Positions 4,089 to 13,150 of a stretch of DNA of 64,000 nucleotides are shown in pieces (position 1 is the stretch's first letter; the number at the start of each line of letters is the position of its first letter). Origin of the DNA: an uncultured archaeon. GTDB taxonomy: Archaea; Micrarchaeota; Micrarchaeia; Micrarchaeales; CABMGC01. A program made the position numbers and the translations under genes. Where the stretch lies: contig CAWBCT010000013.1 in assembly GCA_963787445.1 (NCBI GenBank), positions 32,001 through 96,000 on the forward strand, in the 5' to 3' direction. The notes beneath the pieces were generated by a model. It was given only the letters and a program-made list of their open reading frames with translations. It ran no database searches and had not been told where the DNA came from.

Positions 4089-4109
4089 TTGCCTCACGCA
4101 ACACTACTC

Positions 4110-4117
4110 TTATATAC
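4110..4117 (+). promoter_or_regulatory. TATA box of the 5S rRNA gene
   Basis: TTATATAC starting 28 nt upstream of the 5S 5' end; T-tract at 4255-4259 after the gene. Confidence 0.6.
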
Positions 4118-4137
4118 CTTTTCTGGCAATATAATGC

Positions 4138-4253
4138 TGTCAAACGGCCATAGGGACGGGGAAACGCCCGAACCCATTCCGAACTCGGAAGCTAAGCCTG
4201 TCCACGATGTGAAATACTGCCGTAGCGGTGGGAAGACACATTGCTGTTTGGCA
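4138..4253 (+). rRNA. rrf: 5S rRNA (stand-alone)
   Basis: Terminal helix TGTCAAACGGC/GCTGTTTGGCA; conserved CCCATTCCGAACTCGGAAGCTAAG. Confidence 0.93.
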
Positions 4254-4348
4254 CTTTTTATCCCTTAGCGCAAGCCCTAAACGGCACAATTCAGGTCCAC
4301 CCACAAGGCTTATAAATCAGGCTCGGTCCTATCCTATTGGATGATTGA

Positions 4349-4771: not shown

Positions 4772-4847
4772 TGGTGCGAGTGCCGGGATTTGAACCCGGG
4801 TTATTGGGTTGGAAACCCAAAGTTCTACCAGGCTATACTACACTCGC
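4772..4847 (-). tRNA. tRNA-Gly(TCC), intron-less, CCA encoded
   Basis: Acceptor GCGAGTG/CACTCGC followed by ACCA; anticodon arm TTGGG-TTTCCAA-CCCAA; T-arm CCGGG-TTCAAAT-CCCGG. Confidence 0.96.
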
Positions 4848-5616: not shown

Positions 5617-6522
5617 ATGGCCAGCTTCTTTGACGAGATAGCGCGCAACAAGCTCAAGTCGCTGCTGCTCATGGCCATCTTCATCGCCTTCTTCGCATTC
5701 ATAGTTCGGATTTTCGTCCTGCTTCTCGGAGGCGGGCTCCTGCTCTTCCTCTTCGGCTTTGTGATAATACTCCTCTACGCCGGCTTCGTCTACCTGTACG
5801 GAGACAGCCTCACCCTGAAGATGGCGGGCTCGCAGGAGGCTGATAGAAAGCAATACAGCTCCTTGTATAGCATAGTCGAGGGAATTGCTGCCGCATCGCA
5901 GGTTCCGATGCCCAGGGTCTATCTAGTCAACGATTCTAGCCCCAACGCCTTTGCGACCGGGCGCAACAAGAAGGTGTCGGGCATCTCAGTCACCACCGGT
6001 CTGCTAAACATCATGGACAAGCGCGAGCTTCAGGGAGTGATAGCCCACGAGATGTCCCACATAGCCAACGCTGACGTGCAGTTCATGATGATCGCGATAG
6101 TTTTCGCAGGCGTGATAGGCCTCATAGCCGCCGCCATAAGGCTCAGCTTCTTCTTCGGGGGAATGAGTGGCGGCAGGGGGCGCGGCGAGGGCGGCATTAT
6201 ACTCATACTTATCGGCCTACTTATCGGAATACTTGCTCCCATCTTCGCCCTGCTTATTCGCCTTGCGATCTCAAGGCGCAGGGAGTACGTAGCTGACGCA
6301 AACGGCGCAAGGATAACTCGGGATCCGCAGGGCCTCGCCAGCGCGCTTACTAAGATAAAGGGCTACGCCTCCTCTCCGAACGCGCAGGGCGTAAAAAAGG
6401 CTAACGAAGTTGACGCACCGATGTATTTTGCAAATCCGCTGAGCGGCAAGAACATAGGCAACCTGTTCTCAACACACCCTCCGATAGACGAGCGGATCGC
6501 GCGTTTGAAGAAGATGTACTAA
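5617..6522 (+). CDS. htpX: Zinc metalloprotease HtpX (M48)
   Basis: PNAFATG, AHEMSH, SRRREYVAD, FSTHPP; typical lemA-htpX pair. Confidence 0.95.
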   Translation: MASFFDEIARNKLKSLLLMAIFIAFFAFIVRIFVLLLGGGLLLFLFGFVIILLYAGFVYLYGDSLTLKMAGSQEADRKQYSSLYSIVEGIAAASQVPMPRVYLVNDSSPNAFATGRNKKVSGISVTTGLLNIMDKRELQGVIAHEMSHIANADVQFMMIAIVFAGVIGLIAAAIRLSFFFGGMSGGRGRGEGGIILILIGLLIGILAPIFALLIRLAISRRREYVADANGARITRDPQGLASALTKIKGYASSPNAQGVKKANEVDAPMYFANPLSGKNIGNLFSTHPPIDERIARLKKMY

Positions 6523-6604
6523 ATCAATTAGTGACTGCGCACACTCCTAAGCTCTTAAGCAAATCCATAAATATGTCAAACGCCTGACTATAACTTGTGG
6601 TGAA

Positions 6605-7408
6605 ATGCAAAAAATGAGAAGACTAGCTTCAGCTGCAATTCTTGCCTGCGCTTTAGCTGGGCAAAAGGGATTGCTAGGACAGCCGGAGCAACAAAACCTG
6701 CAAGGTCCTAATTTATCATTTGCAGCCAACGAAACGGTTTCGTCCAGATATGTGAAAAGCACGGGTAGCCCGATAGGCATAGGTCCTGTACAGCAATCCC
6801 AGCTAGATCTTAATCTAGGTAACTATTTCACGGCAACAGGTTGGCAGGATTATGACACTACGCGCAGGGCCATGGATGAAGTGGACGCCTATGTGACGGC
6901 CCACAAGGAGCTCTACGCCATTAAAAATCCATATCTGGCCGGCCGCATATCTGCCAGCATAAGTGCACAGGACTGGCTTTATCCTTCTAAACTGATTAGC
7001 AGCCATGATGACCAAGCCCTTATCTCAACACTGACCTATGCCGGCCCTATAACCCTAAAATTTACTGAGAAGCACATGCTTACTAATGGTTTGACTTGGA
7101 GCAGAAATAATTATGTCTTTGATTTATCAAAAGCGTTTGAGGTAGGTTCATGGGGGAGCTCAAAACTTACTCTAGCTCCTACCTTTAGGGTTGCATACGA
7201 TGACAATTTCTTCGGGTATAACGGCTGGAATATCATGACCCCAGGCGGCTCTCTGAAGTTCTCCACAGACAACATTTCAATAGAGGTATTCGAAAAGAAG
7301 GAATTTAGAATGAATGTCCCACCAACAAAAAGAGGGTTTTCTTACGGGGGCGTGTCGGTGACATTTAATGACTTACCAAGGACTATTAAAGGTCTGAAAA
7401 GGCACTAA
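6605..7408 (+). CDS. Secreted beta-strand-rich protein, TorF/Gcw_chp porin-like candidate
   Basis: Signal peptide-like N-terminus; amphipathic strands; 'SSRYV', 'GPVQQ', 'DEVDAYV', 'WLYP', 'YGGVSVTF'. Confidence 0.5.
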   Translation: MQKMRRLASAAILACALAGQKGLLGQPEQQNLQGPNLSFAANETVSSRYVKSTGSPIGIGPVQQSQLDLNLGNYFTATGWQDYDTTRRAMDEVDAYVTAHKELYAIKNPYLAGRISASISAQDWLYPSKLISSHDDQALISTLTYAGPITLKFTEKHMLTNGLTWSRNNYVFDLSKAFEVGSWGSSKLTLAPTFRVAYDDNFFGYNGWNIMTPGGSLKFSTDNISIEVFEKKEFRMNVPPTKRGFSYGGVSVTFNDLPRTIKGLKRH

Positions 7409-8095
7409 CTTCTTACTAGATATATGAGGACCGACTTGCCTCGTTCTCCTTTCCTTTAACACTCCTTGACTCCCGTGGCTTTCCGCAAACTCCGCGTAGT
7501 ATCTGTCTACTGTGGTCTGAGGATCATCCCTATTTAGCCTTTTAAGTATGCTAACCTTTTTCATCCCGTTGCGACCACGGCCCAGGGCGCTCCTAACCTT
7601 AGGGTCCCTGAAGATTTTTCCAAGAAAACCGACCAGCTCGCGGGAAAGACTCTCGTGATGTCTCTCAAGAATACCTTCTATGGCAATTTCATTTGCGTTT
7701 ATTGGAGAGCTTAACAAATCTATCCTGTTGTCATTAATCAGCCGCTTTGCAACCACGACCTGTGCTATTGCAAGTTTTAAGATCTCAGGCTTTACTTTTG
7801 GCTTTGATAGCAACAGAGCGAGCGCACCCTTCTCGCTTCCCGAGGCGATGTACTCCTCTAGCGTGTTCCCTCCACTGCTCCTCATGGCGAGCGCCTCGTC
7901 GTCTTGCACGGCAACAGCGACATGGTTTTCATCGTTCCTTATCGCAATGAATAAATTGCGGCCATCCGGAGGATTTGGGTTCTTCTTGAATTCCTGTATG
8001 AATCTGAGGGACTCTGCCCTGAGCTGAACTGGTTCTCTCGGAGCCCCGCTGCCCCCTCTCGCTGCGTGCTTTGGAGGAGCTGCGCTTACGATCAT
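7373..8095 (-). CDS. Hypothetical protein
   Basis: 240-aa ORF with upstream TATA-like TTTAAATA; no recognised family. Confidence 0.6.
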   Translation of the reverse strand: MIVSAAPPKHAARGGSGAPREPVQLRAESLRFIQEFKKNPNPPDGRNLFIAIRNDENHVAVAVQDDEALAMRSSGGNTLEEYIASGSEKGALALLLSKPKVKPEILKLAIAQVVVAKRLINDNRIDLLSSPINANEIAIEGILERHHESLSRELVGFLGKIFRDPKVRSALGRGRNGMKKVSILKRLNRDDPQTTVDRYYAEFAESHGSQGVLKERRTRQVGPHISSKKLVPFQTFNSPW

Positions 8096-8147
8096 AATAT
8101 CACAACCTAACCCTTGTTGAATGTGATATTTAAATCATTTGTATAGG

Positions 8148-8936
8148 CTAGCCGCCACCGCTTGTGTATTTCCTCATCAGGTAGTAGAAGAGCTTGTAGG
8201 ACACCACGGTTATTGCAGCCGATGCTATCACTGCACCTGCCACGAAGACTGGGTCGAGCCTCCCGAGGAGCGTGTTCACGGAGTAGTAGTATGCGAACCC
8301 TATCGGTATGACCAGGCTGAAGAACACCTTTCCCAGGATGCCGAATATCGTGAGGGGATAGTTGCCCACCGAGGAGGAGAGCATGGCTATCCTGTAGAAG
8401 AACTGGGCGCTCCTGAGCAGGTGGTACGAGAGCACCGTGAGCATGGAGAGGAAGGAGACCAGGGCGATTATCCCAAGGCCGAACAGAAGCGCGAACTCCG
8501 CCAGCGCCGATGCGCCCAGCCCAAGCTGCGACCATGCCAGCAGGAGCACCAGGGCCCCGCCCAGCAGAACGGTGATGGACGAGACGTCAGAGAAGTTTGA
8601 GAGGATGATTGTGAGCTTGCCGTACGGCCTCATGAGATACATGTCCACCGAACCCACCTGCATCGCCTGAACCACCTGCCACCCGCTGATAAGCATGTAA
8701 ACTATGCCCATCATCATGGTGCTCGCTCCCGTGAGGAGCAGCATCTGGTAGTAGCTCCACCCGTTTATGCCGCTCGAGACGGAGTAGATGGCGATAACCG
8801 GGATAATTGCGCTTAGCACGGTGAAGATGCTGTCAAGGGACCAGAGTATCGTCTGCTCCCGGTACGCGAACAGAGACTTGAAGTTGTACTTTTGGGAGGT
8901 CAGGAAGTAGGAGATGTTTTTATTAAGATCTTCCAT
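8148..8936 (-). CDS. ABC-2 type exporter permease (DUF990-like)
   Basis: 'SGINGWSYYQML', 'GSVDMYLMRP', 'YPLTIF', 'IPIGFAYY'. Confidence 0.88.
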   Translation of the reverse strand: MEDLNKNISYFLTSQKYNFKSLFAYREQTILWSLDSIFTVLSAIIPVIAIYSVSSGINGWSYYQMLLLTGASTMMMGIVYMLISGWQVVQAMQVGSVDMYLMRPYGKLTIILSNFSDVSSITVLLGGALVLLLAWSQLGLGASALAEFALLFGLGIIALVSFLSMLTVLSYHLLRSAQFFYRIAMLSSSVGNYPLTIFGILGKVFFSLVIPIGFAYYYSVNTLLGRLDPVFVAGAVIASAAITVVSYKLFYYLMRKYTSGGG

Positions 8937-11615: not shown

Positions 11616-13102
11616 ACTCCAGTCGATGCTGCTGGAGGACACTGCTATCAGATTTCGACAGCCATGCAAGTCAACATCTCGACATGAGGTGTGGCACACG
11701 GCTCAGTAACGCGTGGTCAATCTAACGTAGAGAAGGGCATAACCTTGGGAAACTGAGGCTAATTCCATATAGGCTACGGATGCTGGAAGGCACTGTAGGC
11801 GAAACGGGATGCGAAATGGAGCATTTCCGCTCTACGATGAGACTGCGTCGGATCAGGCAGATGGCGGGGTAACGGCCCACCATACCTTTGACCCGTAGGG
11901 GATATGAGAGTATGAGCCCCGAGAAGGGCACTGAGACAAGGGCCCTAGCGCTACGGCGTGCAGCAGGCGCGCAAACTCCACAATGCGGGAAACCGTGATG
12001 GGGGGAGTCTGAGTGGCAAGCTTTTAGCTTGCCTTTTGCTAAGTTTAGTCAGCTTGGCGAATAAGTGCTGGGTAAGACCGGTGGCAGCCGCCACGGTAAT
12101 ACCGGCGGCACAAGTGGTGTTCACTATTATTGGGTTTAAAGCGTCCGTAGCTGGCCGAAACCGTCTTATGTGAAATGTAGGCGCTCAACGTCTATACGTG
12201 CATAAGATACCTTTCGGCTAGGGAGCGGGAGAGGTTTGGAGTACTTATGGGGTAGTGGTAAAATACTGTAATCCTATAAGGACTACCTGTGGCGAAGGCG
12301 CCAAACCAGAACGCATCCGACAGTGAGTGACGAAGGCTAGGAGAACGAATCGGATTAGATACCCGAGTAGCCCTAGCAGTAAATCATGTAGACATTGGTG
12401 TTGCACCTATCTCGAATAGGTGCAGTACCGTAGGAAAACTGTTAAGTCTACCACCTGGGGAGTACGGCCGCAAGGTTGAAACTTAAAGCAATTGGCGGGG
12501 GAGCACACAAGGGGTGGATGCTACGGTTTAATTGAATTCAACGTCGGGAATTTTACCTGGAGCGACGGCAGGATGAAGGTCAAGCTAAAGACTTTGCCTA
12601 ACGAGCCGAGAGGTGTTGCATGGCGATCGTCAGTTCGTGGTGTGAACTATCAGGTTAAGTCCTGTAACGAACGAGATCCTCGCTGACAGTTGCAACCGGC
12701 GCAGATGTGCGCCGAGCACTCTGTCAGGACCGCCTGCGTTTAAGCAGGAGGAAGGAGAGGGCTACGGTACGTCAGTACGGCCCGAATCTCCAGGGCTACA
12801 CGCGGCATACAAAGGTTGGCACAATGGGTTGCCACTCAGAGATGAGGAGCTAATCCCCTAAAACCAATCTAAGTTCGGATTGAGGGTTGAAACTCACCCT
12901 CATGAAGTTGGAATCCCTAGTAATCGCATGTCACCATCGTGCGGTGAATATGTCCCCGCTCCTTGCACACACCGCCTGCCAAGTCATCCAAGTGGGGTCT
13001 TAGTGACGCCGTATCCTAACAGATGCGGTCGAACTAAGGTTTCGTGAGGGGGGCTAAGGCATAACAAGGTATCCGTAGGGGAACCTGCGGATAGATCACC
13101 TC
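11616..13102 (+). rRNA. rrs: 16S rRNA, archaeal, divergent (DPANN/Micrarchaeota-like); not linked to 23S
   Basis: Conserved blocks GCCATGCAAGTC, ATTAGATACCC, AAACTTAAAG.AATTGGCGGGGG, TGCACACACCGCC, TAACAAGGTA, GATCACCTC; about 1.49 kb, no intron; ends approximate. Confidence 0.97.
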
Positions 13103-13150
13103 AAAACTTTTTACAAAGTTTTATTATAAACTAGTGTGCGTACAGAACAG

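Follow-up and report, generated by a model that had tools for sequence, protein, structure and literature searches.

Transmembrane beta-barrels of the outer-membrane protein (OMP) type are regarded as a distinguishing feature of bacterial outer membranes and of organelles of bacterial descent, and their insertion is thought to depend on Omp85 insertases. Here we describe a gene for such a protein in an archaeon. The DNA analysed, called the window throughout, is a stretch of 64,000 nucleotides from an uncultured soil member of the Micrarchaeales (assembly GCA_963787445.1, contig CAWBCT010000013.1, positions 32,001 to 96,000). An intact open reading frame (ORF) in the window's ORF list and translation (6605..7408, + strand, 267 aa) encodes what is predicted to be a Sec-exported, monomer-sized OMP-type beta-barrel with some 12 strands, distantly related to the TorF/Gcw_chp porins. 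We hold the fold and the ancestry, taken alone, to be highly probable. For the whole statement, namely that the product is an exported OMP-type barrel channel of bacterial ancestry, independent of the beta-barrel assembly machinery (BAM) and encoded by an accessory gene under selection, we see the case as evenly balanced.

The nearest named family is TorF (TIGR02001/PF09694), for which we know of no established function. TorF proteins resemble the window protein in their similar length, signal peptide and beta-barrel, and an N-terminal motif of the S.YV..G...GP.Q type aligns in those relatives of the window protein that match TIGR02001. They differ from it in that its host is archaeal, in that an Asp and a basic helix replace the terminal aromatic residue, and in that TIGR02001 matches none of the 13 sequences of its archaeal clade. 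No TorF structure is among the solved chains matched by our model. The KdgM/NanC 12-strand specific porins (4pr7, 8xua, 2wjr) are also monomer-sized barrels and superpose with Z-scores of 16.2, 16.1 and 14.4 (root-mean-square deviation, rmsd, 2.7-3.7 Å over 168-188 residues), with a sequence identity of 7-12%. Their Pfam family is unmatched by the window protein and absent from the matches listed for its relatives, and since PcoB, FapF and autotransporter barrels score about equally, the likeness is one of fold class only. The organelle outer-membrane barrel OEP21 (7bgh) aligns at Z 11.5 in VIA-align, with no sequence relation. In mitochondrial barrels the beta-signal of the last strand is internal and more residues follow it, as in the window protein; unlike the latter, mitochondrial and chloroplast barrels need an Omp85-type insertase (Sam50/Toc75), and none was found in the genomes that carry the gene.

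Among archaeal proteins, Ihomp1/Imp1227 of Ignicoccus forms a small oligomer of helices rather than a beta-barrel and is not known to be related in sequence. It is the sole pore-forming protein of an archaeal outer membrane to appear in the reference list of a review by Klingl (PMC4243693). Our literature search, whose scope left subscription journals outside, returned nothing joining Micrarchaeota with a beta-barrel and an outer membrane, and nothing joining the phrase 'archaeal outer membrane' with a beta-barrel. In one of the two papers found to contain both Micrarchaeota and porin, the latter word refers to CPR bacteria, and a term search of the text of a large survey of transmembrane barrels (PMC10629564) gave no occurrence of the word archaea.

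The window protein has no Pfam match at E ≤ 1 and no NCBIfam match at E ≤ 10, PF09694 and TIGR02001 included, and a six-frame search of the source genome with PF09694 gave no match at E ≤ 10. Its kinship becomes visible through its relatives. A word-based search found four close ones (57-66% identity), and an exhaustive HMMER scan returned 107 cluster representatives at E ≤ 1e-3, of which 43 have E ≤ 1e-10 and 9 have E ≤ 1e-30, with a Pfam cut-off passed by 0/107. In a set of 102 members, weak Pfam matches (E ≤ 1) fall mainly on outer-membrane barrels: Autotransporter (4), Gcw_chp (PF09694; 3), YaiO (2), and one each for OMP_b-brl, DUF481, MtrB_PioB, Porin_4 and OMP_b-brl_3. TIGR02001 (gcw_chp, 'TorF family putative porin') is matched at E ≤ 1 by 15/102 members, any other NCBIfam model by at most one. 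When members were scanned singly (97, that is, all except the window protein's five-member clade), 13 matched TIGR02001 at E ≤ 0.05, co-linear with the model. The best of these matches, P0049, reaches E 4.2e-08 and 33 bits, every relative's match lying below the cut-off of 47.15; P0049 is itself matched by the window protein at E 1.1e-10. An HHalign comparison of the 13 archaeal-clade sequences with 12 TIGR02001-matching members gave a probability of 100% and E 1.1e-46 over 210 columns, N-terminal motif included. For one relative, P0099, rather than for the window protein itself, an Atlas model compared with a TorF cluster gave TM 0.76/0.79. The first-pass annotation had identified the gene as a TorF/Gcw_chp-like barrel; of this, kinship stands on the TIGR02001 matches and the profile alignment, and membership does not, as the window protein is unmatched and its relatives fall below the cut-off. 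Judged from these profile comparisons, the barrel family stands beside the TorF family as its unnamed sister.

Searches in other directions yielded little. The family alignment of 102 sequences, used as a profile against the sequences of solved structures, had 0 matches at E ≤ 10. In a tblastn search of plasmids, the window protein (P0001) and P0091 were unmatched, and P0055 had one match at chance level (E 0.6). A scan of viral contigs with an F-ending subgroup found no relative. A profile word search led to 15 proteins, none of which has an informative name or a Pfam domain, and the cluster names of 10 distant relatives were equally uninformative. Among the Atlas clusters closest to the family by protein language model, several bear a phage label (Uroviricota) and a partial MipA or Porin_4 annotation, a hint that small OMP-like barrels are carried by phages. 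In one member, P0076 (582 aa), the barrel forms the C-terminal domain (residues 369-550) after a long N-terminal part, a fused form that is autotransporter-like.

The fold prediction is consistent with these matches. AlphaFold2 (AF2), given the alignment of 102 sequences, produced an all-beta model with pLDDT 90.5, pTM 0.82 and 212 residues at or above 90, replacing a model built from only 5 close relatives (pLDDT 61). The N-terminal helix, corresponding to the signal peptide, is detached and of low pLDDT, and the model has no internal helix or plug. The DSSP string contains 13 strand elements; with residues 168-183 taken as one bulged strand, the model most likely comprises 12 antiparallel strands. 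The strands are joined by short turns (2-6 residues) on one side and mostly by longer loops (2-15) on the opposite side, an arrangement shared with bacterial OMPs. Searched with Foldseek, the PDB contains 83 matches at E ≤ 0.001, and those listed are all outer-membrane barrels or engineered variants, among them OmpG, Tsx, FapF, PcoB and NanC, with TM ≤ 0.48 by model length and ≤ 0.61 by target length. In VIA-align, searched over 48,161 chains, KdgM ranks at the top (Z 16.2, rmsd 2.7 Å, 168/171 residues), with VhGalP and PcoB (both 16.1), FapF (15.7), the COG4313 channel (15.3), NanC (14.4) and autotransporter barrels (13.5-14.6) following; rows 1-46 are without exception outer-membrane or designed membrane barrels. 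In the window protein and in the family average alike, every predicted strand is hydrophobic on one face and polar on the other; at the family level this covers all 13 DSSP elements, with a mean hydrophobicity of about +0.65 to +2 on the hydrophobic faces and about -0.5 to -1.6 on the polar ones. The prediction thereby combines what characterizes the OMP superfamily: a closed barrel of antiparallel strands, even in number, whose residues alternate between hydrophobic and polar. The alternation that the first-pass annotation had read from the letters is therefore present in every predicted strand and family-wide, and AF2, Foldseek and VIA-align all point to a barrel of the transmembrane type instead of a soluble beta-sandwich. 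From the fold matches and the strand pattern, the hydrophobic face would point outward.

A secreted soluble barrel, serving as a binding protein or adhesin module and not as a membrane channel, would have to accommodate this evidence. Strand alternation alone cannot tell which face is outside, and the loss of the terminal aromatic signal (below) would fit release from a membrane role. Yet the top structural matches are all membrane barrels, including a designed 12-strand transmembrane barrel that aligns over 176/179 residues (Z 13.8). Moreover, the hydrophobic faces consist of small aliphatic residues that could not fill a 12-strand lumen, the conserved charged residues lie on the other face, and no helix or plug occupies the model's interior. 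We regard a soluble barrel as improbable.

Residues 47-64 of the window protein read SRYVKSTGSPIGIGPVQQ, and W80, EVDAY (92-96), WLYP (124-127) and YGGVSVTF (247-254) follow, the last with 13 residues after it, NDLPRTIKGLKRH. In the family alignment G54 is invariant, while Q64, W80, E92 and D94 are conserved in at least 90% of the sequences; Q64, E92 and D94 are on polar strand faces. The motif order had been proposed before any alignment was available, and every motif is present. Since they coincide with conserved family columns, they are not matters of chance. The expected absence of internal transmembrane helices is borne out by Kyte-Doolittle hydropathy, in which the sole hydrophobic 19-residue window covers residues 7-25 (1.44). 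The N-terminus, too, looks as it had been described, like a signal peptide: a basic n-region and a 13-residue h-region are conserved in position among relatives, and close relatives share LLRGQ at the predicted cleavage region, where cleavage would occur. On these features we infer export by the Sec pathway. Two other routes were considered and rejected. For a lipoprotein signal at ILAC (residue 12), position -2 is Leu, and other members of the 22-row group defined below have no lipobox-like motif; for Tat export, the RR that precedes the h-region in several relatives is not conserved in the window protein's own clade.

A quick maximum-likelihood tree of the 102 sequences, rooted at its midpoint only, places the window protein in a clade of 5 rows (support 100) within a clade of 13 rows (SH-aLRT 93). 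This 13-row clade is nested in a group of 22 rows, and the other 80 rows surround that group. Three sub-clades of the 13-row clade are linked to Micrarchaeota, the window protein's own among them. The sub-clade P0014/16/20/22/24 is tied to the phylum by the protein of genome G284, which is 44% identical to P0024. The sub-clade P0008/9/19 is tied to it through a major facilitator superfamily (MFS) gene on L007, one of two short metagenome contigs (L007 and L008) found by a narrower alignment search. L007 encodes P0009, and its MFS gene shares 76% and 72% identity with genes from two genomes of the order, other matches among those listed being mostly 40-57% identical; a small ORF on the same contig, a zinc-ribbon lead, has no Pfam match. 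The 80 outside sequences have classical signal peptides, in most cases a terminal F, and in 11/80 lipobox-like motifs, and in the Atlas both queries lie next to clusters from bacteria (Verrucomicrobiota, Bacteroidota, Pseudomonadota) or phages. On the strength of the signal peptides, lipobox-like motifs, terminal F and Atlas neighbours, the F-ending relatives would be bacterial, and the gene was most likely acquired from bacteria by an ancestor within this order of Micrarchaeota.

The C-terminus is where the archaeal sequences depart from this background. An OMP beta-signal ends in an aromatic residue; in the family alignment F254 of the window protein lies two residues before that canonical position, and the column is occupied by D256. 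The claim of a 13-aa tail after the beta-signal-like strand is accordingly correct as a count of residues after F254, and the extension past the family's normal end is 11 residues. AF2 places a helix at residues 257-266 within the extension, whose coding sequence overlaps the 3' end of an opposite-strand ORF (7373..8095). A terminal F, W or Y is found in 64/80 sequences outside the 22-row group, in 5/22 within it and in 2/13 of the archaeal clade. Tails reaching at least 5 residues beyond the F254 column show the reverse order (3/80, 13/22 and 8/13), and the tails of relatives are alike, with the pattern xDLxxGxKxLxxxR/K. As read from the alignment and the predicted helix, the C-terminal recognition signal is remodelled in the archaeal clade, the terminal aromatic being mostly lost and a basic amphipathic helix often added.

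That the host is an archaeon, as had been stated, follows from a complete archaeal 16S rRNA gene in the same window (11616-13104), 4.2 kb from the barrel gene. The source genome (G000) has 1.05 Mb in 19 contigs, with 82% completeness and 5.4% contamination, and the window lies within a 107-kb contig (C13). The family profile matches 3/201 genomes sampled across the phylum, 6/248 genomes of the order (source genome included) and 1/10 other genomes of the genus; close relatives are also encoded by Micrarchaeaceae and Micrarchaeota metagenome-assembled genomes (two named records). Five congeners without the barrel gene keep LemA-HtpX, and the 1.5 kb downstream differs in each, with no homologue there of the barrel gene, of the ORF at 7373..8095 or of the window's ABC genes. 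The barrel gene thus sits in a variable region. Across loci L018-L022 the genes downstream of LemA-HtpX change from genome to genome (e.g. NUDIX hydrolases and unnamed proteins), as at a hotspot for gene turnover.

Selection has kept the gene. Among the four closest DNA sequences dN is 0.25-0.35, while dS is 1.96-3.9 or not computable through saturation. With dS inestimable for 3/6 pairs and YN00 unusable because of the saturation, omega (0.09-0.16) should be read as no more than a rough, upper-range figure. All 6 carriers have an intact ORF, the family motifs are conserved, and the gene has been retained through divergence down to about 30% identity.

These data bear on whether the gene is a decaying relic of horizontal transfer, as the first-pass annotation had allowed, or an assembly or binning artefact carrying a bacterial gene. 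The distribution is patchy, the region downstream of HtpX is variable, and GC is below that of the neighbours: 45.3% in the barrel gene vs 55.3% in HtpX, 55.5-56.9% in the ABC genes and 52.9% in the genome. The gene is, as noted earlier, AT-richer than these neighbours, but the adjoining opposite-strand ORF has 49.4% GC and the gene falls at the 11.7th percentile of 804-nt genome windows, which is not exceptional. Against decay stand the intact reading frames (6/6 carriers) and the low dN with saturated dS, with dN/dS well below 1, which exclude a relic. Against an artefact stand the archaeal 16S gene on the same contig, a position between genes conserved in the genus, orthologues in archaeal contexts in other assemblies, and contigs from four soil runs, all of one study, that bridge both gene borders (5977-6712 and 6354-7154 from HtpX to the barrel gene, 6869-8161 from there to the next ORF). 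As these runs may include the genome's own sample, the bridging contigs support the assembly and not an independent occurrence. Both versions are largely refuted, and we give them next to no credence.

A check for paralogues and Omp85 relatives, suggested with the original annotation, came back empty in the source genome: the barrel gene is single-copy, and Omp85 (PF01103) is unmatched at E ≤ 1. The 5 other carriers together have one Omp85 match (E 0.01, 14.6 bits), below the cut-off of 24. POTRA (13 bits) and OmpH (Skp; 18.9 bits) likewise stay below their cut-offs, and OMP_b-brl is unmatched. As controls, all diderm bacteria gave Omp85; some archaeal controls also match Omp85, POTRA and OmpH, with their cut-off status not stated. 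Because no BAM-type machinery over cut-off is encoded, insertion would be BAM-independent.

One possible target is a true outer membrane of Micrarchaeota, in which the protein would act as a general porin inserted from a periplasm-like space. The OMP-like architecture and signal peptide would suit such a role, and the review cited above reports cryo-tomography of ARMAN cells in which a periplasm lies between an inner membrane and an outer one (PMC4243693). The outer-membrane premise of the first-pass annotation, which leaned on these images, is weakened by a preprint on the cultivated 'Ca. Micrarchaeum harzensis', which describes one membrane with an S-layer and reinterprets the ARMAN images (10.1101/2021.04.28.441871). 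A general porin would also be expected to be widespread, and the gene occurs in only 6/248 genomes of the order and 1/10 other genomes of the genus, with no paralogue in the source genome and no BAM, POTRA or Skp over cut-off. The rarity and the single membrane of the cultivated species speak against a general outer-membrane porin, which we consider unlikely, and favour an accessory role.

A second candidate is the cell's own cytoplasmic membrane, entered from outside or held at the surface by the basic C-terminal helix, with the protein acting as a gated uptake channel or receptor. This membrane is the nearest one after Sec export, the basic amphipathic tail could lie on its anionic surface, and a TrmB-type sugar regulator is the divergent neighbour of the gene in 2/6 carriers. 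An open 12-strand pore would, however, dissipate the proton gradient of an energised membrane, and we know of no OMP-type beta-barrel in a cytoplasmic membrane. We rate this reading as quite unlikely.

The explanation that we prefer is that the acquired barrel, retained under purifying selection as a patchy accessory gene in variable genome regions and with its C-terminus rewritten in the archaeal clade, inserts without BAM into a lipid membrane encountered, after export, beyond the cytoplasm. There it would most likely work as a water-filled channel with a polar lumen lined by conserved acidic and amide residues (Q64, E92, D94). For the target membrane, our preferred guess is that of a partner or host cell at a contact site, delivery to a host membrane having been among the options of the first-pass annotation, with the cell's own outer membrane, if there is one, in second place. 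Several points weigh against this explanation. P0005 and P0006, in the window protein's own clade, keep a terminal F, so that loss of the signal is not universal. The bacterial taxonomy of the F-ending relatives and the bacterial donor are both deduced from the features given above, on a tree with a midpoint root, and the outward orientation of the hydrophobic face is likewise a reading of the model. As the source genome is 82% complete, BAM parts are 'not found' rather than 'absent'. We know of no precedent for a 12-strand barrel that enters archaeal ether-lipid membranes spontaneously, and cultivated Micrarchaeota have wall-less Thermoplasmatales as their known hosts. A stronger version, that the clade domesticated a bacterial barrel and re-engineered its C-terminus for Omp85-free insertion, giving the first functional archaeal transmembrane beta-barrel channel in an own outer membrane or as a partner-feeding pore, we put forward tentatively, with more doubt than confidence.

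An OMP-type barrel encoded in archaeal genomes in which no insertase was found, kept by selection and with its recognition signal rewritten, matters in several ways. If inserted in a membrane, it could be a marker protein for the disputed second membrane of Micrarchaeota or, alternatively, a candidate for the route by which DPANN symbionts take metabolites from their partners, and it would give a natural case of barrel insertion without BAM. Table 1 lists the features of the gene and its setting in the other carriers.

Table 1. Features of the barrel gene in the window, and arrangement of the gene in five other carrier genomes
Feature or genome	Coordinates	Strand	Basis or gene arrangement
TATA-like box ATAAATAT, candidate archaeal promoter	6568..6575	+	about 30 nt 5' of start; read from sequence, putative function
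GGTGA, candidate ribosome-binding site	6599-6603	+	directly 5' of ATG; putative function
Barrel-protein coding sequence	6605..7408	+	stop included; ORF list and translation
Signal-peptide-like N-terminus, residues 1-25 (MQKMRR, Ala/Leu-rich h-region, LLG/Q)	6605..6679	+	hydropathy, alignment; putative cleavage site
Predicted beta-barrel body, residues 37-255	6713..7369	+	AF2 pLDDT 90-98; VIA-align matches; dyad hydrophobicity
Most conserved family motif S.YV...G...G.GPV.Q, residues 47-64	6743..6796	+	first long loop and start of strand 2; 102-sequence alignment
C-terminal extension, residues 256-267, DLPRTIKGLKRH	7370..7405	+	basic, predicted helical; AF2, alignment columns, relatives' tails
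G259 (same genus)			LemA-HtpX, opposite-strand TrmB regulator, barrel gene
G295			TrmB regulator, barrel gene; SecY nearby
G055			barrel gene between E2 and E3 genes of 2-oxoacid dehydrogenase operon
G284			AspRS, barrel gene, NUDIX, aIF2-gamma
G181			peptidase A4 gene, barrel gene

Some features of the gene and its surroundings are worth recording. An alternative ATG at 6614 would give a product of 264 aa, and this form is P0002 in the protein collection. The ORF at 7373-8095 (-), 240 aa, has no Pfam or NCBIfam match; it is convergent with the barrel gene, the last 36 nt of which it overlaps. Contigs from three soil runs (X1-X3) have 1-nt deletions at 7439 or 7442, inside the 3' end of this ORF, which makes its C-terminus, or its reality, uncertain. 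A C>T variant at 7376 would replace P258 of the barrel protein by Ser, as found in the relative P0003.

In the carriers, two arrangements stand out. At L002 (4649-8211; also L005) the barrel gene lies on the same strand between the genes for E2 (lipoamide acyltransferase) and E3 (dihydrolipoamide dehydrogenase); given this same-strand insertion, it is probably co-transcribed with central metabolism genes. At L009 (623-1381, -) and L010 (655-1374, -) closely similar TrmB regulators (Pfam E 2.4e-12 and 1.1e-10) are the divergent 5' neighbours, which suggests a two-gene module of TrmB regulator and barrel gene in these two carriers; the window has no TrmB neighbour. At L023/L024 (G259 C12, 20662-21563) HtpX (peptidase M48) matches in two frames, residues 1-189 and 187-301, which is a frameshift or assembly error.

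Besides the 16S gene, the window carries one 5S rRNA gene and one tRNA gene. The 5S gene (4140-4252) is solitary and, at 7.4 kb from the 16S gene, unlinked to it; an ORF listed at 4089-4268 spans the 5S gene and is spurious. The start listed for the LemA ORF, a TTG at 4809, falls inside the tRNA gene (4775-4847, -). As the tRNA covers that start and the Pfam LemA domain begins at residue 88, the true start of LemA must lie further downstream.

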